Shown one piece after another: positions 2,174-50,847 of a stretch of 64,000 nucleotides of DNA; the stretch's first letter is position 1, and each line of letters starts with the position of its first letter. Origin of the DNA: a virus. The notes below the pieces were generated by a model. That model did not search any database. It worked only from the letters and a program-made list of their open reading frames with translations, and was not told the DNA's origin. The position numbers and the translations under genes are program-made. The DNA lies in IMG/VR virus record IMGVR_UViG_3300032893_000012, positions 45,322 through 109,321 of that record; one strand, 5' to 3'.

Positions 2174-3511
2174 TCAGCCAGCCTTCTGCACGAGCTGCGG
2201 CGCGTTCTGGCTGCAGTATGCCTTCCAGCCGCCGGGCATTTCCCAGCCCTTGATCTTGATACCGATCTTCAGGATGCCACCCTTGAAGACCTCTCGGCAG
2301 ACGTTGACCGACTGCTGGATCAGCACCGGCGTCGCGTCGAGCGTCTGCTCCAACATGACGTTGTTTGCGCCTGAAGCAATGGCGCCTGCGGTCGGTACAC
2401 CGTTGCCTGCCGCAGCCCCCACCTGTGTCGAACAGGAAAGATTCGTGTCCGGCGAGATGTTGACACCGAGAGGCTCGTTGTTGATCGTGACTGCCTGGAG
2501 CATGAGCGCCTGGTGCACGGCGTCCTGCACGACGAACAGCATGCCGATGGGGATACCGCGCTCGAGGAAGCACGGACTCTCGATCGGCCGGTACATCTGG
2601 CCACGGCAACCGTAGCCCTGCCACCGGAGACCGCCCCACGTAACCGGTGCGAGATCGAAGTCGCGCGTCGGGTGGAACACGCCGACGTTGTTGGTCGCGC
2701 TCGTGCTGTTGACGCTGCCGACGCGCCTGAAATTCACCGGAAGGAAGATCGTCGCCGATCCCTTCGAGCGATAGAGCGCGTTGACCGCAGCCACGAATTC
2801 GATGATCGGCACCTCGCTCGTGCCGCTCGCTTCGGCGTCCGCGAAGGATCCGAAGTACGAGACGTCGGCCGCGAGCTCGTTCAGTACGAGCTCACGCTGC
2901 GAGGTCTTCCATTGGAACTGGTAGGCGTTGATGAAGTTCCAACCTGCACGCCACACGTCGGCACCGAACTCGAACACCGCCGGAGACGGCGGCGTATCGC
3001 TCGTCGGAGTCGCGCCGGCGAACTGTCCACCGAGTGCGCCGTTGAAGAGATCGTTGGCGGTGAACACGTCCGGTGAAGGAGGCGGAACCTGCGTCGTTGC
3101 CGGCGCCGCGAAAGCGTTGCCGATCGTCGAGAAGCTCATTGGTTCGCAGAAGGTGTGCACGCCGACTCCCTGAGCGAGGATATCGGTTTGCAAGATCCCG
3201 TTGATGAGGAACGTCGAATCGATCGACGCCACTCCGGGCACGCTCGATGAACCGCTGAGCAGGTTCACCGTGTCTCCGAGAGTGGCGAGCGCCTCCTCGG
3301 CAGTGAGCGGCAGAGGGATCGTCCAGACCACCTCTTCGATGACGGGGATGTTGCCGAATGAGCAACGAAGGCACTTGTCCATCGCGGCTGCGGCGAGCGT
3401 GCCGTCGATCTTGTTGGGGTCGAGACCGAGTCCAAACTGCGGACGCGCCACTTTCGGCTGGTCTCCGCCGAAGGTCTTGATGGTTCTGCCGATGATGCTT
3501 CTCGAGGACAT
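2174..3511 (-). CDS. Candidate major capsid protein (445 aa, fold unverified)
   Basis: AGGAG SD before ATG 3511; strongly C/G-ending codons; flanked by hairpins; beta-rich; follows the core-protein gene. No family motif recognised. Confidence 0.45.
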   Translation of the reverse strand: MSSRSIIGRTIKTFGGDQPKVARPQFGLGLDPNKIDGTLAAAAMDKCLRCSFGNIPVIEEVVWTIPLPLTAEEALATLGDTVNLLSGSSSVPGVASIDSTFLINGILQTDILAQGVGVHTFCEPMSFSTIGNAFAAPATTQVPPPSPDVFTANDLFNGALGGQFAGATPTSDTPPSPAVFEFGADVWRAGWNFINAYQFQWKTSQRELVLNELAADVSYFGSFADAEASGTSEVPIIEFVAAVNALYRSKGSATIFLPVNFRRVGSVNSTSATNNVGVFHPTRDFDLAPVTWGGLRWQGYGCRGQMYRPIESPCFLERGIPIGMLFVVQDAVHQALMLQAVTINNEPLGVNISPDTNLSCSTQVGAAAGNGVPTAGAIASGANNVMLEQTLDATPVLIQQSVNVCREVFKGGILKIGIKIKGWEMPGGWKAYCSQNAPQLVQKAG

Positions 3512-3570: not shown

Positions 3571-3612
3571 ACACCTCAACCCCGGGGCTCGAGGCCTACC
3601 GGGGCGAGGTGT
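3571..3612 (-). other. Intergenic stem-loop between the core protein and capsid candidate genes
   Basis: acacctc..ccccgg / ccgggg..gaggtgt nested inverted repeat. Confidence 0.45.
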
Positions 3613-3626
3613 TTCACTGAACGAGT

Positions 3627-5312
3627 TCAGGTGCCGGGCAGGTACGGCAGCTCCTCGCGACTTTCTCCGAGGAAAGCGGAGTGACCGGCGAGCGGATCGC
3701 CTACGCACCCGCACGACGGATCCGAATGCGGTCGCGCCTGTGGCCCGGGACCGACGTCTGAGGGCGGTCCTGGTTGCCAATCCTGGCTCACGCCAGGTTG
3801 ACCCGGATTACCGCGTCCGTACGGCGCTCCGGTCCCCATGGACTGCGCCACGGTCGGGTAGTCGCTTCCGGGACCACCGGTTCCCCACGTGTTTTGCACG
3901 GTGGGGTACTGGGAGTCCTGAATGCCGGTGGCGTTTCGCAGCGCCTGGCCAGCATCCGGGTAAGGCGACTCCGCGGCGAGCGCGAACGGACCCACGTCGG
4001 CTCCGGAGAGCACGCCAGCCACGGCAGTCACCTGCTTCTGCTGCATGTTCAGGGATGCCGCGACCTCCGCTGGATAGAGGCGCACGATGATGCTCTTCTG
4101 GAGCGACGGAGGACTCGTGTCCTTCGGTGTGAGCATCGGCATGAGGAAGTTGTTCCAGAACATCCGGAACAGATTCACTCCGGCGCCGAGCGCCAGACCA
4201 TCCAATGCCGCTTTCCCTGTTCGATTGCGGACGGCATACGCCGAGAGCAACGCTGGCGCGGCAGCGACCCCGACTCCGGCGCCGATGCGCATGAGGTTGG
4301 GACGCATGGCCACGTTCAACGTGTTTGCGAGCGTGCCCGAACCATCGCTCGTAAACTTGTCGGTCGGCTTCGGATCTGTCGAGGACGGATTGTACGTAGC
4401 GAGCAAGCGATCGATGCCGTCCGCTAGAATGAAACCGACGCCGCTGGTGACAACCGCCACCGCGAAATCAGCAACACCCATTCCGCTTCCGCCTCCGCTA
4501 GATGCGTGCATACGCCGACTGTGACGCCGACGAGAATGACGACGACGAGGCGATTCCATCACGTGCGCTCGGCGCCGGCTGTGGCGCCTGCGACGACGAC
4601 GCGGAGCTTCGCTCACCACCGCTTCTCGAGTGGTTCGCCTACGCGCGTGCCGGCGCGTCTTCTTGCGACGCCAACCCTTCTTGGCTGCCTTCCGGTGACC
4701 GGAGGGGTTACCGCGCCACGCCTGCACGTTGCTATGCACGCGACGCCGATGCCGGCGACGTCGCCACTTCTGCTGCGGCGTGAGCACGCGCTTGCGCGTT
4801 CGACGACTTGCGCGGGCCTGTGTCTTGCGCGCTCGGCGACGACGCCTCCGCTTGGGGGCTGCCACCGATGTAGCTGCACGAACGCGCCGGCGACGCGCGC
4901 GCTTGGGCGCACTCTTCTTCTTGCTAGAGCGACGACGACGACGGGGTGAGGATACTTTCGCAGTTCTGGCCATGCTTTCCTCTCGAGCGACTACGGCGCG
5001 GATGCCTTTGCCGAACGGGACGGTCCGTTTGACTTTGGACCCTTTCGGATCGAATTGACGGATGCGGATGTACTGGTCGGTGACGTCCACCTTCCCGTAC
5101 CGGTAGCCGTGAGACCTAGCCCACGCTTTCGCCTTGCTCTCGGTCCACCCGGCGCTGCGATGAAACAGCAACGATTGGACAGACATCGATTTCGACTCGT
5201 GCGGCGCAACGGCGTCCGTACGCGGGTATGCGATCGGAGATGGCCTGTTTCGCGCGACATCACTACGGCGTGATTCGCTGAGATCGGCCAGTCGATCGTC
5301 GTAAAGACCCAT
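3627..5312 (-). CDS. Arg-rich protamine-like core protein with a small N-terminal domain and membrane segments
   Basis: QSLLF..WT..KAKAW..HG..KVDVT..IRQFDP domain; about 160 aa poly-Arg tract; three hydrophobic Gly/Ala segments. Start uncertain; internal SD + ATG at 4973. Confidence 0.7.
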   Translation of the reverse strand: MGLYDDRLADLSESRRSDVARNRPSPIAYPRTDAVAPHESKSMSVQSLLFHRSAGWTESKAKAWARSHGYRYGKVDVTDQYIRIRQFDPKGSKVKRTVPFGKGIRAVVAREESMARTAKVSSPRRRRRSSKKKSAPKRARRRRVRAATSVAAPKRRRRRRARKTQARASRRTRKRVLTPQQKWRRRRHRRRVHSNVQAWRGNPSGHRKAAKKGWRRKKTRRHARRRTTREAVVSEAPRRRRRRHSRRRAHVMESPRRRHSRRRHSRRMHASSGGGSGMGVADFAVAVVTSGVGFILADGIDRLLATYNPSSTDPKPTDKFTSDGSGTLANTLNVAMRPNLMRIGAGVGVAAAPALLSAYAVRNRTGKAALDGLALGAGVNLFRMFWNNFLMPMLTPKDTSPPSLQKSIIVRLYPAEVAASLNMQQKQVTAVAGVLSGADVGPFALAAESPYPDAGQALRNATGIQDSQYPTVQNTWGTGGPGSDYPTVAQSMGTGAPYGRGNPGQPGVSQDWQPGPPSDVGPGPQARPHSDPSCGCVGDPLAGHSAFLGESREELPYLPGT

Positions 5313-5539
5313 GTCACGATGCACTGACAGGCTCTCAGCGCAACCTATTACGGTCAATACGATGGCAAATAACGAGACGAATCACGCGCGCGTTGCCATC
5401 ACGCGAATGCGCGTCAACACCCCGACTCAGCACATGTCTAAAAATTTAGTATTCACGCGATGTTACGCATGAACACCCTCGTGACAATTCGACGCCAAAT
5501 ACCACTACGACATCGGCGTAACTCGAGCACCGTTTCTGT

Positions 5540-5572
5540 TCAACGAACGTTAAACAATCGTCAAACGATCGT
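5540..5572 (-). repeat. 3 x 11-bp tandem array (consensus ACGTTCGTTTG), putative operator
   Basis: Minus strand reads acgatcgtttg acgattgttta acgttcgttga; same unit at 12535 and 26199. Confidence 0.65.
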
Positions 5573-5576
5573 TTGA

Positions 5577-7208
5577 TTATCGGATGTTCGGGTAGAGCAG
5601 ATCGAGCAAAGTTGTGCGTTTACGGTGCACGCCGCCGAGCGAGCCTTCGCTCATACCAACGAAGTCTCCCGCACCGATCTCTTTTGCGGTCTTCCCTGGT
5701 TCGACCCACCACTCTTTTGCGTTGGGAGAGACGTGTCCGACGGGATAGTTCGTCGTTCCGTCCATTCTCACCCAATCTCCGAGGTCATCTTCGAACGCCA
5801 TGAATACGTGTGTCGGTACTTCATACGGCGCACGGTGACTGCTTCCGATGATCATGGCGTCGATACCGATCGACATCACCGCTGCGGCGAGCGTGATAGC
5901 CGCTTCGTCACAGTTGCTTACGGTTACGTCGTGCTCTGGGAGGTAGACGTAGTGATCGTCGGTAGAAATATCCCAGCAAGGGACTTTTCTGACGGATCGA
6001 TCTATCGATCGAACCGACAGTGTGAGTGATCCTTTCTCCCGTTGACCGACACGCCACAGAGGATGCTTTCCAGCTCCGCCATGTTGCTCTGGAGTGAGCA
6101 TTTTAACGCTTGTCATCTTGCCGAACATACGATGCAGTACGCGCACCTGAAGCATGAGTTGTCTGCTAGTCGTCGAATACGTACGCGTGGCGGCGCCGGT
6201 GTTCTTCGTGCTATCGGCCATCAATCCGCGCAAGGCCGCAGCGGCGCTAGCCTCTTCGAGATTAATCGTTTCCAGATGTTTAAATCTCGCTCGAGATCCT
6301 AGTCCGGCTATCCGTGAAGCCCATTCTCTATCTTTGATCTCGATGTATTTCGCGTGCCAGAGAGTCTCGATCCCGAGGCGTTCGCAGATGGCCTTGACCT
6401 CATGCTTCTGTTCTTCTTTGCGTTTGCCGTCGCGACCGCCAATGCGAAATTTCAGATGCGGCAGATTTTTGTTTTTGCTCGCTTCCACCCATCCGTCTGC
6501 GAGCGTCAGAGCTTCGACGTACATGCGATCCGGATCAACTCGCATCGATCCGAAAACGATACGTTCTGGTTGGAGAAGTGCGTCTCCCTCCGACAGATCA
6601 GTCACGCGGACACGCTCAAATGCGTTGCAATCTTTTTGGTAGCAGGCTCCGTGTGCTGACCGACCGTGCGGACACCTGCCGACATATACCTTGTGATCGC
6701 CGGTCAAATGCATCGTCGAGCCGTTGCTCATCTCGATAGCATCGACCGAAAGCGCTCCTTTTGCCCATTTTTGCGTAACTTCGCTCCACTTGTCCTTGCC
6801 CCAGATACGATCGCCGATATTGATCTTTTCGATCGGAATGAATTCAAAATCGTCGCGTAGGAGCAGCGTTCCTTCCGGGAAGCAATCGCCGCCGATGATG
6901 CAAAGCCCTCCCTCGTCGAGACAGAGAAGCTGGTTCGGTGTCGCCATAAATTCTCCCATGACTGGGTCAGCGACGTACGGAACCTTCTTTCTGAAGGCAT
7001 CGAGAATACACTGCGCCTTTTGACGTTTCCCGCCACGTGACACGCCTTTTTTGTCGAGCTGTTGGAGCACCCAGGCGCGCAATCTCGGACTCATTCGTGC
7101 GGACCATGCGCGGTCGGCCACCTCTTGCAAGGATTTCTTCGCTCCCTTAGCGCCAGCAGGGTGCGGTCCAGCATCTGTCTTCACTCCATTTATAGGCTTG
7201 TCGATCAT
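5577..7208 (-). CDS. Transglutaminase-like Cys enzyme (putative protease) interrupted by an intein
   Basis: Spliced extein reads YVADP..GGD|CDEAAITLAA..THVF..WVRMDG, the Cys-His-Asp triad of the transglutaminase-like fold; 219 aa after splicing. Confidence 0.85.
   Translation of the reverse strand: MIDKPINGVKTDAGPHPAGAKGAKKSLQEVADRAWSARMSPRLRAWVLQQLDKKGVSRGGKRQKAQCILDAFRKKVPYVADPVMGEFMATPNQLLCLDEGGLCIIGGDCFPEGTLLLRDDFEFIPIEKINIGDRIWGKDKWSEVTQKWAKGALSVDAIEMSNGSTMHLTGDHKVYVGRCPHGRSAHGACYQKDCNAFERVRVTDLSEGDALLQPERIVFGSMRVDPDRMYVEALTLADGWVEASKNKNLPHLKFRIGGRDGKRKEEQKHEVKAICERLGIETLWHAKYIEIKDREWASRIAGLGSRARFKHLETINLEEASAAAALRGLMADSTKNTGAATRTYSTTSRQLMLQVRVLHRMFGKMTSVKMLTPEQHGGAGKHPLWRVGQREKGSLTLSVRSIDRSVRKVPCWDISTDDHYVYLPEHDVTVSNCDEAAITLAAAVMSIGIDAMIIGSSHRAPYEVPTHVFMAFEDDLGDWVRMDGTTNYPVGHVSPNAKEWWVEPGKTAKEIGAGDFVGMSEGSLGGVHRKRTTLLDLLYPNIR
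5913..6884 (-). mobile_element. Intein (324 aa) with a LAGLIDADG-type, possibly degenerate, endonuclease region
   Basis: Block A CFPEGTLL, block B LTGDHKVY, LTLADGW / LRGLMADS / STTSRQL blocks, block F-G CWDIST..VTVSN followed by +1 Cys. Confidence 0.9.
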
Positions 7209-26321: not shown

Positions 26322-29476
<3,155 letters not shown>

Positions 29477-30327: not shown

Positions 30328-31695
30328 TTACCTCAGATGAACGTAGTCGATCTGGCTCGTAGCAGGCAGCGTTGCCGGATTGATGGTCCCGCCGCCAATC
30401 CCGCCTATGGCAGTGTTGATAATCAAGAACATGGGCGTGTTCGGTACATAGCTAGCCGCAACTGTGCACGTCGTTGCGCCGTCGATCTTCCAGATGAGTG
30501 ATCCGGGCGTCCATGCGAGCGTGTAGACGTGAAAGTTCGCGCTCGTGTCAGTGGTCGCTGGACCGCATCCGTCATCATGGCCGTTCGAATGAAGCTGCTG
30601 GTTCACGTGGCCATGATCCCCGTTGAGGATTTCTGCGATGTCGATCTCGTCCGACCCGGGCGCTGGCCAGTTGCAGCTGCATTTGTTGTCCGCGCTCTCG
30701 AAGTTGGAAACCTGACAGTTCGCGCCGAGCAGCCACACCGCCGGCCAGGTCGTGCCGCCGGCGAGTTTCGCTCGGACGTCGAGCGTCCCGTAGGTGAACG
30801 AGAAGGACCGGAACTGCACGCCGCCCGAGGTGAACTGCGGATTCGCTGTCATGTTGTAGTTGGAAGAGAGAGAAAGCAGGCCGCCTGACGCGGCTACATT
30901 GTCCGGCGAGTAGAATTCGAGCTCCGCGTTGCTCAAGTCTCCAGGCCGATCGAACGTAAACCACTGAGTTCGATCGAGACTGTCGAATTCGTCCGACCAG
31001 ACGAGCGCGCCGCTAGATCCACCTGAACCTACTGTGCCGCCGGAACCGACCGTTCCGCCTGAGCCGACTGCTCCGCCGGATCCAGACGATCCGCCGGTAC
31101 CTGGCGCTCCACCAGATCCGGCGTCACCCGCTGTGACTACGGCGCCGTAGAAACCGGCCGTTGTGGGGCTCCAGGTCTGCCCACCACTCGGATACGTCGC
31201 AGGGAGACTCGAGAGACTCGTTCCGCTCGTTGTGCGAGAGATCGTGCCGCTCGATGCTCCGCAATAAACCGGTATACCGCCACTGCTAGGTCCTAGGAGC
31301 GCTAGCCAGTAACGCGTACCACTAGTCACGGTGACGGAAGGAACGGTCACGGTGTTCCAGCCAGCTACAGGTGAAGCGACTGTCCCGGATGTGAGAAGCG
31401 CAGTCGGAAGTGTTCCGCCTGAGTTGCTCGAGTAAAGCCCGATCTTGATTTGCGAAGCCCCGTTTCCGGAAGCAACACAAAGGCTCAACGAGTTGAGTGT
31501 CCCGCTCGCTGTCGCGGTGTATCGCCACGCTTCGGCGGAGCCTGCGTTGTTGTTGTCGGTAGTCGTATACTTCGTCGTGTCACCGACGAGCACTGTCGTC
31601 GATGTCTGACTCACCGTTCCGATATCGTCACGGGCAGACGGTGCGCAAGCAAGCGCCACGAGCGGCGCGACCAAGAAGGCAAACAGGGTTTTCAT
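30328..31695 (-). CDS. GH16 glycoside hydrolase lipoprotein with an N-terminal beta-sandwich and a Gly/Ser linker
   Basis: Lipobox ALAC; LVWSDEFD, WPAVWLLG, catalytic EIDIAE, FHVYTLAW, IDYVH. Confidence 0.9.
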   Translation of the reverse strand: MKTLFAFLVAPLVALACAPSARDDIGTVSQTSTTVLVGDTTKYTTTDNNNAGSAEAWRYTATASGTLNSLSLCVASGNGASQIKIGLYSSNSGGTLPTALLTSGTVASPVAGWNTVTVPSVTVTSGTRYWLALLGPSSGGIPVYCGASSGTISRTTSGTSLSSLPATYPSGGQTWSPTTAGFYGAVVTAGDAGSGGAPGTGGSSGSGGAVGSGGTVGSGGTVGSGGSSGALVWSDEFDSLDRTQWFTFDRPGDLSNAELEFYSPDNVAASGGLLSLSSNYNMTANPQFTSGGVQFRSFSFTYGTLDVRAKLAGGTTWPAVWLLGANCQVSNFESADNKCSCNWPAPGSDEIDIAEILNGDHGHVNQQLHSNGHDDGCGPATTDTSANFHVYTLAWTPGSLIWKIDGATTCTVAASYVPNTPMFLIINTAIGGIGGGTINPATLPATSQIDYVHLR

Positions 31696-33086
31696 TGGTT
31701 TCCTCTTTCTTTGAACCATTCTAACATTTCGTCGAATGACACGAGCCCGAGCAGTTCCTTACGATGCGTAACGAGATCGGTGTAGGTCTCTGCCGGAAGC
31801 GACGGGATCCCATCATCAGATCTATTTGGAATTACGATCGCCACACCGTAGTCTGCGTCGACGGTACGTACCATATGGTTTCCCTCGCGACGAATCCGCA
31901 CAATAGCCTTCCAAACATCGCCGGTCCACTCTCCCTGCACCTGCGGCACCGCCTGCATCGCTTCGGTTGAAGGGTTCGCGTCATGCACAACGACTACACG
32001 CGAAATATTGCAGGCACTCTCGATGTCTTGATAGGCTTGCTCGGAGTGGTGAAGACCGTCGACGAAAGTAATGTCGTATGGTTTCACCGCGAACCCGTCA
32101 AAGAACGCATCTGAACTGCAGCGGTAAAATACATTTGCGGCGGATGGCCCCTCGACAGCCGGAGCTGGGTCGACGCCTTCTTTCCACCGAATATCGACCT
32201 TTCGTAGCGTCTCGCCGGAACCGATCCCGATTTCGAGATAGCTCTTCGCGTCGATACGACTCGCGATGGCGTTAATGACGTCCCATCGGTAGATCTTTCT
32301 AACAAGCGTGCGCCACATGCCGCGGTGAGTTCTCTTCCGGAGCGAATAGGCGATCGGTGCACCATCGAAGGGAGTCCGGAAGAGAAGCGATTCGTCGCCT
32401 CTTGGGTCACCTCCCCACTTGCGTTCGAATTGCTCGAGGCCGCGACGAATTTGCTTCTGTGACTCGTCAGACCAAGAGCCGCGGACGGCGTGTTTGAACT
32501 CGGTCTTGACGAGCACGGGCTCGATACCACCGAGCTTCATGCGCCAGCGGTAGTCGGAGTCCTCGTAGTACGCGGGGTAGAACGACTCGTCGTAGGGACC
32601 GATCTTTTGGTAGAGCTCGGGCGAGTGGAGGAAGAGGCACCAGCCGCTCGCGTCGAGGCCGCCGTCGGCGATGACGAGCGGAGTCATCAGGGCTCTCTGC
32701 CGAAACGAGTCCGATTCGGTAGAGGCGAGCGCGCGGGTTCCCTCGTATTGCCCGACCAGATCCTGGAGCGTGGTCTCGCCGAGCTCGACGTCGTCGTTCG
32801 AGATGACGACGAGGTCTTCGGCCGCCTCGTCGAGGATTGCGTTCCACGCGGCGGCGACGCCGATGTTCGAGCCCGGTTCGAGGACGCGGACGGTCCTCCC
32901 GTTTGAGAGGGCGTGATGAATGACGGGAGAGCCTTCGAGCTTCGCGCGGAACTCGCCGCCGTTGTCGACGATGAGGTATCCGTCGAGCTTGTAGGTGGCT
33001 TCGGCCGAGGCGAGAAGACGCTCGAGGAGGTCGTAGCGCTTGAGGACCGGGACGCCGAGGAGCATGTGCCGGTGTTCCGTATCCAT
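31692..33086 (-). CDS. GT2 glycosyltransferase fused to a class I SAM methyltransferase
   Basis: IVDNGG, NIGVAAAWN, SNDD, YYEDSDY; then YLEIGIG, FVDGLH, VVHD. Confidence 0.85.
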   Translation of the reverse strand: MDTEHRHMLLGVPVLKRYDLLERLLASAEATYKLDGYLIVDNGGEFRAKLEGSPVIHHALSNGRTVRVLEPGSNIGVAAAWNAILDEAAEDLVVISNDDVELGETTLQDLVGQYEGTRALASTESDSFRQRALMTPLVIADGGLDASGWCLFLHSPELYQKIGPYDESFYPAYYEDSDYRWRMKLGGIEPVLVKTEFKHAVRGSWSDESQKQIRRGLEQFERKWGGDPRGDESLLFRTPFDGAPIAYSLRKRTHRGMWRTLVRKIYRWDVINAIASRIDAKSYLEIGIGSGETLRKVDIRWKEGVDPAPAVEGPSAANVFYRCSSDAFFDGFAVKPYDITFVDGLHHSEQAYQDIESACNISRVVVVHDANPSTEAMQAVPQVQGEWTGDVWKAIVRIRREGNHMVRTVDADYGVAIVIPNRSDDGIPSLPAETYTDLVTHRKELLGLVSFDEMLEWFKERGNQ

Positions 33087-48343: not shown

Positions 48344-49138
48344 ATGGAGACCGACAGCTTCTATCGAATGGGATCGACCCATTCGGTGTGCCAGGACTAT
48401 GCGGCTTCGGGCGTCTCTCCTTTCGGAGACGTCCGAGCCGCAGTCTCCGACGGATGCTCCACCGCCCTCGATAGCGACTGGGGCGCCCGCTTTCTTGCGC
48501 GCGCGGCCATGACCGAGAAGGAGATTGGAACCTTTTCGGTTCTCGATGCGGCGAAGGATATGATCGCGGCTTCTCGCCTTCCGCGTCAAGCGCTCCGGGC
48601 GACCCTTCTCATCGCCTACGTCTTGTCAAACGGCGAAGTGAGAGCCTACCGGTCCGGCGATGGCGTCATCGTGACGCGGGCGCGCAGCGGCTTCGTCGCG
48701 TACGAACGCGTGGAGTTCGAGGGAAATATGCCGCCTTATCTCTCCTACATAGGCGTCCATTCGGACGTCGATGAATATTACCAACTCTGTCGCACACAAA
48801 CGATCACACTCGGCGCGCGCGACCTCGGTGGCAAATGGACTCGGAAAGAGTCTCAGGATTTTCCCTCGGTCATCGGACATTCGTCTCTGCTTGGAAGCCC
48901 CAGAGAGCTCGATCTGGTGCTGCTCTTCAGCGACGGGGTCGAGAGCTTCCAGGACCGTGACGGCAACGTCGTGCCTCTAGAGACCATCCTCGATGAGCTC
49001 CTGGCGATCCGGAACTTCAAGGGGCAGTTCCTCGGACGAAGGTGCGGAGCGTTCCTGCAACGGACGTGTGCCGAACGTGGCTGGAAGCACAGCGACGATT
49101 TTTCGGTCGCTGGGATCTACTTCGGAGACACGCAGTGA
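48344..49138 (+). CDS. PP2C-family protein phosphatase
   Basis: H..CQDY, AVSDGCS, GDG, FSDGV, SDDFS. Confidence 0.88.
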   Translation: METDSFYRMGSTHSVCQDYAASGVSPFGDVRAAVSDGCSTALDSDWGARFLARAAMTEKEIGTFSVLDAAKDMIAASRLPRQALRATLLIAYVLSNGEVRAYRSGDGVIVTRARSGFVAYERVEFEGNMPPYLSYIGVHSDVDEYYQLCRTQTITLGARDLGGKWTRKESQDFPSVIGHSSLLGSPRELDLVLLFSDGVESFQDRDGNVVPLETILDELLAIRNFKGQFLGRRCGAFLQRTCAERGWKHSDDFSVAGIYFGDTQ

Positions 49139-50847
49139 AAGTCTTCGTCAAAGGCAAAGGGGAGATCACACTCACCCAATCGAATTACGTCGCCGAAGGT
49201 GGCCAGGCGGCCGTGTACCAGCGCAACGGTACCGCCTACAAAGTGTACACGGATCCGGCGAGCGCCATTCCGGAGGCGAAGTTCTCGCAGCTCGCCGCGA
49301 TTCAAGACGCCGACGTCGTGAAGCCGGTGGACCTACTCATCGATCCGAAGACCAGTCAGCCTATCGGCTACTCGATGCGTTTCGTCGACGACACCTACGC
49401 GCTCTGTCAGCTCTTCCCGAAGGCCTTCCGCGACCGAAACAGTATTGGGCCTGCCAAGATCGCGAAGGTCGTCGAAGAGCTCCAAAAGCACGTCTCGAAC
49501 ATCCATCGCGCCGGAGTCCTCGTCGTCGACTTGAACGAAATGAACATCCTCGTAAGCCGTGCGATCGACGCCGTTTTCATGATCGACGTCGACAGCTACC
49601 AGACACACGAGTACCGTGCGGAAGTCATCATGCCATCGGTGCGAGACTGGTCAGTCTCGTCTTCGGCCTTCTCGGAGCTCTCGGATTGGTTCTCGTTCGC
49701 GGTGCTCGTTTGCCAGCTCTATCTTGGGATCCATCCCTACAAGGGAACGCATCCCGGCTCAGCGAACATCGCCCCTGACCAGCGGCTCGAGTACCGGATG
49801 CGGAACCATGTGTCGATCTTCGACACATCCGTGAGTCTCCCGAAGGCCTGCGGGTCACCAGACTCGATCCCGGCCGTTCAACGAGAGTGGCTCCGGGCAG
49901 TCCTCCAGGGCGGCAAGCGTCTTCCTCCGCCTGTGACAGGGGCCGCCGTCGCCCCGGTCGTGCAAGCGCAGCAGGCGGTGCTGAAATTCGGCGGTCGACT
50001 TCTGGTCACGGAACTCCGAGGCTTCGAGGAACCGGTGCTCGCGTTCGCTGTGTCATCGGTATTCACGATGGCGCTCGTTGCGAGCGGCATTATTCTAAAC
50101 GGAGTGACTGCCACACGTGGCCCAATCGAGGGAACGATGCTCCTCGGGTTCACGCCGAAGATGGGTCGCCCAATCGCGTTGAATCTTCACCGAGGGATTC
50201 TGCGCCTGTACGAACTCGCTGACCGCCGCGTAACGGAGCTCCCGATCGCGGCGAAAGAGATCACGAAGAGCGGCGAGCGTTTCTACCTCCGAAACGGAAC
50301 ACAGGTGCTCGAGATCGACTTCCGTGAGCAACCCGACAAGCTCATTGTGACAGCGGGGCACCCCGTCGCGAATGTCCTCGAAAACGCCTCCCAGCTTTTC
50401 GACGGCGTAGCCATCCAGAACATGATCGGCTCGACTTTCATCTCACTCTTCCCTCGGACGCAGGCGGGATATCAGCTGCGGGTCCCTGAGCTCGACGGCT
50501 ACAGGATCGTCGAGGCGCGCTTCGAGGGTCGTGTACTGATGGTCGTCGGGACGAAGGCCGGCGAGTACCACCGGCTCGTCTTCTGTCTCGATGAGGCGTT
50601 TACGACGTACCGGCTAGTGACAACGTTCAGAAACAGTGCCCCGGGCGCTGTAAACTTCACCGTTACTGACTCGGGTGTTTGCGTGAGCGTTACCGAGGAC
50701 GAGAAGATCGTTGCATACCCTCCCGGCATGGCCAGCGAAGTAGTCATCTCGGATCCTGCCATCGGCGGCGACATGCGGCTTTTACGCGCTGACGGGAAGA
50801 CCGCCTTCCTACGGGGAAACAAAGTTTTCGCGATCACTATGAAGTGA
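49135..50847 (+). CDS. Ser/Thr kinase (TerY-P/YegI-like) with a long C-terminal beta-rich domain
   Basis: AEGGQAAVY, AYKVY, VDLNEMNILV, IDVDSYQ, SDWFSFAV, GIHPYKG. Confidence 0.9.
   Translation: MKVFVKGKGEITLTQSNYVAEGGQAAVYQRNGTAYKVYTDPASAIPEAKFSQLAAIQDADVVKPVDLLIDPKTSQPIGYSMRFVDDTYALCQLFPKAFRDRNSIGPAKIAKVVEELQKHVSNIHRAGVLVVDLNEMNILVSRAIDAVFMIDVDSYQTHEYRAEVIMPSVRDWSVSSSAFSELSDWFSFAVLVCQLYLGIHPYKGTHPGSANIAPDQRLEYRMRNHVSIFDTSVSLPKACGSPDSIPAVQREWLRAVLQGGKRLPPPVTGAAVAPVVQAQQAVLKFGGRLLVTELRGFEEPVLAFAVSSVFTMALVASGIILNGVTATRGPIEGTMLLGFTPKMGRPIALNLHRGILRLYELADRRVTELPIAAKEITKSGERFYLRNGTQVLEIDFREQPDKLIVTAGHPVANVLENASQLFDGVAIQNMIGSTFISLFPRTQAGYQLRVPELDGYRIVEARFEGRVLMVVGTKAGEYHRLVFCLDEAFTTYRLVTTFRNSAPGAVNFTVTDSGVCVSVTEDEKIVAYPPGMASEVVISDPAIGGDMRLLRADGKTAFLRGNKVFAITMK

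Follow-up and report, generated by a model that had tools for sequence, protein, structure and literature searches.

On the minus strand of a 64,000-nucleotide stretch of viral DNA (hereafter the window, bases 45322-109321 of a 109,321-bp IMG/VR record of an uncultivated virus), there is an open reading frame (ORF), here called the arm-anchor gene, which ends with the stop codon TGA at 3627-3629 and whose longest frame, counted from TTG at 5357, encodes 576 amino acids (aa). In order, its product contains a 15-aa N-peptide, a basic domain of 69 aa (the QSLLF domain), an Arg/Lys arm of 172 aa, hydrophobic helices (two strong and one weak) and a Pro/Gly-rich tail, as listed in Table 1. The conserved start is ATG 5312, and MGLYDDRLADLSE, which is conserved across the related loci, is also the N-terminus of many database homologues. 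An earlier note on this DNA had described the ORF, the QSLLF domain, the Arg tract, the Pro/Gly tail and a GAGGA Shine-Dalgarno (SD) sequence followed by an in-frame ATG at 4973, exactly where the Arg tract begins; all of these are present in the sequence. The reading preferred here, at roughly even odds (a probability of about 0.5), is that the gene encodes a membrane-anchored protein of the structural module, which would condense the viral DNA at a viral membrane and be produced in two forms, one long and one short.

For a membrane protein, one or more hydrophobic helices some 19 residues long are expected, and two segments with Kyte-Doolittle means of 1.89 and 1.71 are found here. Of the three hydrophobic segments claimed previously, these two are clear and the third, at 1.08, is marginal. 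In one subgroup of related loci (L004, L005, L009, L010 and L029), an insert of about 600 aa is present in the tail, composed of repeated Ala/Pro-rich helical units (..HPAVQAAV..AAQAASAAPPGTP..), by which the protein is doubled to 1060-1210 aa.

Table 1. Features of the arm-anchor gene and its flanks, in window coordinates.
Feature	Position	Strand	Remarks
Terminator-like hairpin with T-run	5448-5477		Just upstream of the TTGAC element
Conserved upstream element TTGAC-N15-TGAGAGCCT	5329..5357	-	About 16 nt 5′ of ATG 5312; leader without SD
Long-form start (ATG 5312) and N-peptide MGLYDDRLADLSESR	5268..5312	-	Most conserved segment, 83% mean pairwise identity; SD core in 1/19 loci
Variable Pro/Arg-rich linker	5187..5267	-	14% mean pairwise identity; length differs among loci
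QSLLF domain (QSLLF..WT..AKAW..HG..KVDVT..RIRQFDP), 69 aa	4980..5186	-	71% mean pairwise identity
Candidate internal start: GAGAGGAAAGC, then ATG 4973-4971	4971..4984	-	In frame, opens the Arg tract; GAGG 4982-4979, 5 nt 5′ of the ATG
Protamine-like Arg/Lys arm, 172 aa	4458..4973	-	Arg blocks between short A/V/T/S/E spacers
Conserved motif within the arm QAWRGNPSGHRKAAKKGWRRKK	4659..4724	-	Common to near and distant homologues, including P0075, P0089 and P0129
Hydrophobic helix 1 MGVADFAVAVVTSGVGFIL	4425..4481	-	Kyte-Doolittle mean 1.89 over 19 residues
Highly conserved loop ADG.DR.LATYNP...KFTSDG.GTLANTLNVA	4287..4424	-	Most invariant columns of alignment A2; its patterns recovered 24 viral loci
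Hydrophobic helix 2 IGAGVGVAAAPALLSAYAV	4230..4286	-	Kyte-Doolittle mean 1.71
Weak third hydrophobic segment, after basic turn RNRTGK	4155..4211	-	Kyte-Doolittle mean 1.08, marginal for a membrane helix
Pro/Gly-rich tail and stop codon, 161 aa	3627..4112	-	22 Pro, 23 Gly; 29% identity; motifs LYPAEV, DVGPFAL, GPGPQ and CGC.GD..FLG conserved in A2
Stable RNA hairpin between the arm-anchor gene and the 445-aa gene, no T-run after it	3571..3612	-	Minimum free energy -32.4 kcal/mol, z = -4.4 against shuffles

The conserved gene, its candidate second start codon and its arginine arm

In a search of 1.84 billion representative proteins, 978 matches were obtained at E <= 1e-3, and 54 of them at E <= 1e-30. 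From viral contigs, metagenomes and genomes, 23 further distinct loci were collected (24 with this one), on contigs of 13-125 kb that are mostly viral and then 37-125 kb long, and in each related locus the homologous frame is open over 500-1200 codons. By this comparison the gene is real and conserved and not a chance frame. The order of the genes w560, w350, transglutaminase (TGase)-like gene, arm-anchor gene, w466, w223 and w295 is invariant among the loci; the next gene, w466, probably of 445 aa, is 64-88% identical among them, compared with 39-59% for the arm-anchor protein. The whole protein has no Pfam match at E <= 0.01 and the arm alone none at E <= 1, Pfam and PHROGs scans of the whole, the arm and the anchor plus tail were empty, tblastn found no relative of the protein or of the QSLLF domain, and thus none from a cultured phage, among 50,697 phage records, and no description of such a phage protein was found in a full-text literature search.

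What marks a nested start is a start codon that is conserved in frame within the ORF and preceded by a ribosome-binding site, and both are found at 4973. First of all, a Met opens the Arg tract in 24/24 loci, while its distance from the end of the preceding domain is variable (REESM, REDKRM, REGSKTM, REEVQEKTRM, RESTSTRGPM and others). In 21 of the 24 loci a GAGG, AGGA or GGAG core lies 8-16 nt 5′ of this junction Met; as a control, the same core stands before only 35 of the 330 other in-frame Met codons of these 24 genes (10.6%), it precedes the long-form start in 1/19 loci, and none is in range before the Met that precedes QSLLF. Moreover, the core is formed by varied residues as the spacing shifts (EES, EET, RGP, KTR, NKD, GVT and others), and where the Glu-Glu codons are too distant it is supplied by other codons, namely AGA-GGT (Arg-Gly) in L034, CAG-GAG in L008 and ACG-GAG in L018. 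The junction EESM or EENM is kept in orthologues without the QSLLF domain, and the word REE is missing where the QSLLF domain ends other proteins, which finish in ...AVVGR. Distant homologues (P0112, P0129, P0089 and P0056) begin directly with the Arg tract, followed by the anchor, and such proteins open with 'MAK..' ahead of the tract; therefore, the junction Met is probably the ancestral start, kept after the fusion. The internal start proposed in the earlier note thus gains comparative support, its use as a second start being still a prediction. That is to say, the pattern supports, without proving, the making of two products, of which the short form may possibly be the more abundant. The Met at the head of helix 1 was also considered as a third start and rejected, an SD being found there in few loci only.

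The arm itself contains 58 Arg, 14 Lys, 1 Asp and 3 Glu in its 172 aa (34% Arg), with a net charge of +68, and SPRR occurs at two places and APKR/APRR at three. In 12 homologues the arms hold 33.6% Arg and 9% Lys, with a net charge of about +55 to +92. At least about 30% Arg arranged in blocks, with few acidic residues, is the composition expected of a protamine-like or P6.9-like tract, and it is what is seen here. The mean pairwise identity of the arm is 31% and its length ranges from 159 to 269 aa, while its composition is kept and the anchor with its loop is 55-58% identical, the region between the helices being the most conserved compared with the arm; a role of the arm based on charge would therefore fit.

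Gene content of the virus and the proposed role of the protein

Some 100 of the record's ORFs were searched against Pfam, the majority of them against PHROGs as well. The scans matched helicases, a PD-(D/E)XK nuclease, a prim-pol, ThyX, ParB, an integrase and a Cas12f-like TNB domain; the record also has glycosyltransferases, GH16, a collagen-like protein, a kinase-like ORF, PP2C and LysM/peptidoglycan-binding domains. Among these ORFs no family match was obtained for a terminase, a portal, a capsid protein of the HK97 type or the nucleocytoplasmic large DNA virus type, or an FtsK/A32-type ATPase, a missing match being no proof of absence. SD cores precede 21/56 longest-ORF starts, compared with 14% of all ATGs in the genome. 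Because of the LysM and peptidoglycan-binding domains, ThyX, ParB and this use of SD sequences, the host is, by its gene content, bacterial. A 5.8-kb contig binned in a Binatia metagenome-assembled genome and a marginal match of 35 residues in a Polyangiaceae one are hints too weak to name it. The virus appears to belong to an undescribed lineage of large bacterial viruses without recognisable terminase, portal, HK97-type capsid or packaging ATPase.

In the proposed mechanism, the two or three hydrophobic helices would sit in the viral membrane. According to the positive-inside rule, a strongly basic arm is not moved across a bacterial membrane; since the +68 arm could not cross, it would lie on the cytoplasmic face, where the DNA is, and the basic turn RNRTGK between helices 2 and 3 agrees with this side. 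There the arm would bind and neutralise the viral DNA in the manner of protamines, adenovirus pVII/mu and baculovirus P6.9, so that the genome, instead of being pumped in, would be condensed at the membrane, which would then close around and wrap it, with the conserved loop, and perhaps the tail too, facing the shell. Condensing and wrapping is the simplest reading because no motor is detectable. The long form, from ATG 5312 behind a short leader without SD, would carry the N-peptide and the basic QSLLF domain in addition, and the short form, from ATG 4973 with its good SD, would consist of arm, anchor and tail. By our estimate, about 3,200 copies of a +68 arm would neutralise all of the about 219,000 charges of 109 kb; a partial neutralisation, with some hundreds to a thousand copies, would be more like adenovirus. 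DNA condensation and tethering to the inner membrane, both put forward in the earlier note, are plausible, as they fit the composition, the hydropathy and the conserved place in the particle-gene block.

Among known viruses, cores of protein-condensed DNA occur in adenoviruses, baculoviruses, some giant viruses and a few small archaeal viruses. To our knowledge, bacterial viruses with large double-stranded DNA (dsDNA) genomes fill a preformed shell by a motor, and protamine-like proteins are absent from them. Adenovirus pVII and pre-mu (pX) are likewise Arg-rich and, as is proposed for the arm, neutralise and condense dsDNA, in a non-tailed icosahedral virion; they are made as precursors in a system with a gene for a papain-like Cys protease, as here a gene for a Cys-His-Asp protein of transglutaminase fold is always adjacent. 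Unlike the present system, adenovirus has no membrane, its core proteins lack an anchor and a packaging ATPase is present, whereas the host here is bacterial; adenain cleaves at (M/I/L)xGx-G and not after Glu, and the arm protein shows no sequence relation to the pVII and pre-mu families (no Pfam match).

In Sulfolobus polyhedral virus 1 (SPV1) of the Portogloboviridae, a VP1 nucleoprotein core lies in a lipid layer in a jelly-roll shell (PMC8459092). Protein-condensed DNA, an enclosing membrane and no recognisable packaging motor would, on the reading proposed here, be the shared features, and as for the last of them neither a packaging ATPase nor a terminase was matched in the scanned ORFs, which again does not prove their absence. 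SPV1 differs in being a 20-kb archaeal virus whose VP1 is a separate soluble protein and not a membrane-anchored Arg tract. Mini-CRISPR arrays are a further feature of portogloboviruses.

Protamines, baculovirus P6.9 and the C-terminal domain of hepatitis B virus (HBV) core share with the arm the Arg blocks with S/A-P-R-R words and show, as is proposed for the arm, a charge-based, sequence-tolerant binding of nucleic acid, but they are short soluble tails or proteins of 35-60 residues, whereas the arm has 172 residues and is fused to an anchor in a bacterial virus. P6.9 and the HBV core domain are under control by phosphorylation, and this genome, in parallel, has a protein-kinase-like ORF at 49042-50847 (+) (Pkinase, E 7e-5, under the curated cut-off) and a PP2C phosphatase elsewhere in the record; together with the S/A-P-R-R words of the arm they give the idea that DNA binding could be under phospho-control, as in P6.9 and HBV core.

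The candidate nested start resembles those of lambda C/Nu3, Mu I/Z and lambda S107/S105, in which translation from an internal ATG, served by a separate ribosome-binding site, yields a shorter product with the same C-terminal part, so that the two forms co-assemble; those are protease/scaffold or holin/antiholin pairs, and the second product here is predicted only. By the comparisons run, none of the adenovirus, portoglobovirus, P6.9 and HBV core systems appears to be homologous, and none is membrane-anchored.

Several points weigh against the proposal of a DNA-condensing membrane protein made in two forms. With the third helix marginal, the tail may lie on either side of the membrane. The SD core consists in most loci of Glu-Glu codons, which the protein itself may require, for instance at a cleavage site, and the loci are related, so the SD and Met counts are not independent. 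No natural split gene was seen in any locus readable as DNA; the database proteins P0015, P0018, P0024 and P0025 do start at the junction Met, as far as their protein records show. Homologues with the membrane domain alone, with acidic N-termini and without the Arg tract (P0027, P0033, P0039, P0045 and P0046), also exist, which the earlier note had named beforehand as speaking against its view; they are seen as proteins only, and a separate Arg-rich gene may lie next to theirs. In addition, the AF2 model of the 445-aa neighbour reaches a pLDDT of 33 (shallow alignment), and a putative capsid role of that neighbour is drawn from conservation and position.

With the same role, the gene could instead encode a maturation precursor and not be a two-start gene, which is possible though on balance doubtful. 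A virion protease, possibly the adjacent upstream enzyme of transglutaminase fold, would cut after Glu in the context [A/V/T]-x-E-[A/T/S], whereby the N-peptide (L-S-E) would be removed, the QSLLF domain (A-R-E) released and mu-like Arg peptides freed, the internal ATG being a relic of gene fusion. Glu makes up 4.7% of arm residues, and this context is indeed narrow: of 98 Glu in 12 homologues, 77% have A/V/T two residues before them (position -2), where composition would give 27%, and 80% have A/T/S at +1, a position never taken by Arg, though Arg is 34% of the tract. The same Glu word closes both the N-peptide and the QSLLF domain, and the arm contexts could be candidate cleavage sites. The TGase-like gene is always adjacent and its intein-free orthologues match Transglut_core. 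There is precedent as well for cuts after Glu, by T4 gp21 at L/I-x-E and by phiKZ gp175 at S/A/G-x-E, and pVII and pre-mu are processed by adenain. Against this, Glu is confined to the non-Arg spacers, so its neighbours may mirror spacer composition, and the counts are inflated by tandem repeats and shared ancestry. The head proteases that cut at Glu belong to the serine enzymes with assemblin fold, and none was found in this genome. Cleavage is a fair hypothesis, but it leaves unexplained why an SD-like sequence follows the Met through changes of spacing.

The condensation and cleavage proposals can be combined. Hundreds of copies of the short form would condense the DNA on the cytoplasmic face of the membrane, a rarer long form would add a QSLLF head docking to DNA or shell, and the transglutaminase-fold enzyme would cut the Glu sites to mu-like peptides, the whole being the genome-packing device of motor-less bacterial viruses of 40-125 kb. 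Such a combination is speculative and, taken as a whole, rather unlikely; if true, a phage would combine adenovirus-like core chemistry with a membrane.

An entry or ejection device, in which anchor and loop form or gate a membrane conduit (a PRD1-type tube) and the Arg arm holds the DNA end or escorts the DNA into the cell, is improbable. It would account for the inter-helix loop, not the arm, being the most conserved part, and in other proteins the QSLLF domain is the C-terminal part of membrane-anchored hydrolases of the cell wall (SLT, SLT_3, glucosaminidase), a class typical of entry; but an arm of +55 to +92 and freely varying length suits bulk neutralisation better than a defined channel, and a packaging motor, which could otherwise compact the DNA, was not found. 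There is still less to be said for a membrane-tethered nucleic-acid binder of the infected cell, for example one that anchors replicating viral DNA or compacts the host nucleoid at the membrane: placement of the protein in the virion is not direct, and the genome has ParB, kinase, PP2C and other host-interaction genes, but the gene keeps an invariant place within the most conserved block of beta-rich and membrane-protein genes, directly 5′ of the 64-88% identical gene, and a conserved upstream element suggests that it heads the transcription unit of that block.

If the arm does condense DNA at a membrane, a conserved, membrane-anchored arm of this charge in a clade of bacterial viruses of 40-125 kb with no motor detected points to a different assembly route for large phages. 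The gene is a concrete and clonable handle on this idea, with two candidate starts and defined candidate cut sites in one gene.

The QSLLF domain and its relatives

The AF2 model of the QSLLF domain, built from an alignment of 24 sequences, is confident (pLDDT 90.6, pTM 0.79) and has the order strand, helix, four strands. The 71-aa stretch 4974-5186 that holds it has a net charge of +9, and Arg is conserved at alternate positions of one strand (I-R-x-R-Q). No match in PDB was found by sequence profile search, Foldseek or VIA-align. The candidates met on the way were all rejected: RRM-like matches of Foldseek against PDB (E > 0.6, noise), a best Z of 4.6 in the wide VIA-align search (subtilisin prodomain, within background), and the Pfam words DUF5894 (8/24 members, best E 0.021 over 11 residues) and Ish1, which are not significant. 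In BFVD the model matches uncharacterised viral proteins, namely A0A0A0RL66 (TM 0.86), a 97-aa iridovirus protein (TM 0.81) and a 460-aa protein of Pseudomonas phage SM1 (TM 0.76).

Among the best 150 representatives with the QSLLF domain, it is C-terminal in 39 (24 of them behind a strong hydrophobic segment), forms stand-alone small proteins in 19, is N-terminal in 5 and lies in the middle in 9. Stand-alone proteins made up of it have 68-130 aa. Recognisable peptidoglycan-hydrolase domains (SLT, SLT_3, glucosaminidase) were found in 5 of 30 C-terminal cases and also in locus L011. In that locus, from a different virus of 78 kb, the ORF at 5305-6198 (+) has an SLT-like lytic transglycosylase motif, then a membrane helix, then the QSLLF domain at its end, an architecture which recurs in many database proteins. 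Four of the 24 orthologues (L019, L024, L037 and L039) are without the domain, and no second copy of it or of the N-peptide was found in this genome. On these comparisons the QSLLF domain is an unannotated, widespread and mobile viral module without a solved relative. We infer that it could serve membrane proteins as a head for docking on the side that faces the DNA, and it may bind DNA. In the 445-aa neighbour, the N-terminal arm at 3430-3511 (-) (family consensus ..KVxRVPFGLG..) resembles the QSLLF hairpin KVKRTVPFGKG at 5010-5045 (-); this may be chance or a shared strand-docking word.

The earlier note had seen in this domain a resemblance to Tlr6F, a small protein reported from virophages and polinton-like viruses as well as giant viruses and some phages (PMC4642659). 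Like the QSLLF domain, Tlr6F is a small and widespread viral protein without known function, and besides its reported spread, the nearest ESM Atlas clusters to the N-domain are viral proteins of 70-77 aa, some of Preplasmiviricota (score 0.91, a lead only), and one of the BFVD matches is the iridovirus protein. When the profile A1 of 24 N-domain sequences was aligned by hhalign with 72 residues of the PLV-SAF2 Tlr6F (supplement of PMC4642659), which is a single sequence and not a family profile, the probability was 1.6% over 14 columns, and the aligned part was merely a chance FG word. There is thus no detectable sequence similarity: the Tlr6F motifs KKMxAVF, HFG, RYxxRH and ILW are absent from the N-domain, the order of the secondary-structure elements differs, and the N-domain has no Pfam or PHROGs match, so that membership of the Tlr6F family is scarcely credible.

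Flanking elements and neighbouring genes

In an alignment of 17 loci, the TTGAC and TGARAGYCT blocks upstream of the gene are conserved at fixed spacing, and CGTGAC stands directly 5′ of the long-form ATG in many loci. TTGAC-N15-TGARAGYCT has no second close match in the window and is therefore gene-specific there; a general late promoter was ruled out for the same reason. The element is a candidate and may be a gene-specific promoter (for an unusual sigma factor) or an operator. Its conservation suggests that the arm-anchor gene heads the transcription unit of the conserved block. Besides this element, the present analysis adds the case against Tlr6F, the description of the QSLLF module as mobile and optional, the comparison of the candidate nested start across loci and the statistics of the Glu contexts. 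On the other side of the gene, the hairpin at 3571-3612 could determine how much is made of each of the two products, or else protect the mRNA.

The 445-aa neighbour gave no match in a profile search against PDB sequences, and none in the ESM Atlas. The upstream gene at 5577-7208 (-) encodes the Cys-His-Asp protein of transglutaminase fold, in which an intein (with Hint and LAGLIDADG matches) lies exactly at the catalytic Cys (..IIGGD|C..). An intein is also present in the TGase-like orthologues of L006, L022, L034 and L036; most others are free of it and 180-224 aa long, and the intein-free orthologues match Pfam Transglut_core (E 8.6e-6, 26.4 bits, cutoff 23). Elsewhere in the window, a collagen-repeat protein of 958 aa (Pfam Collagen, E 1e-92) at 26352-29228 (+) and a GH16 glycoside hydrolase at 30328-31719 (-) adjoin several glycosyltransferases, and these are probably fibre and glycan genes.

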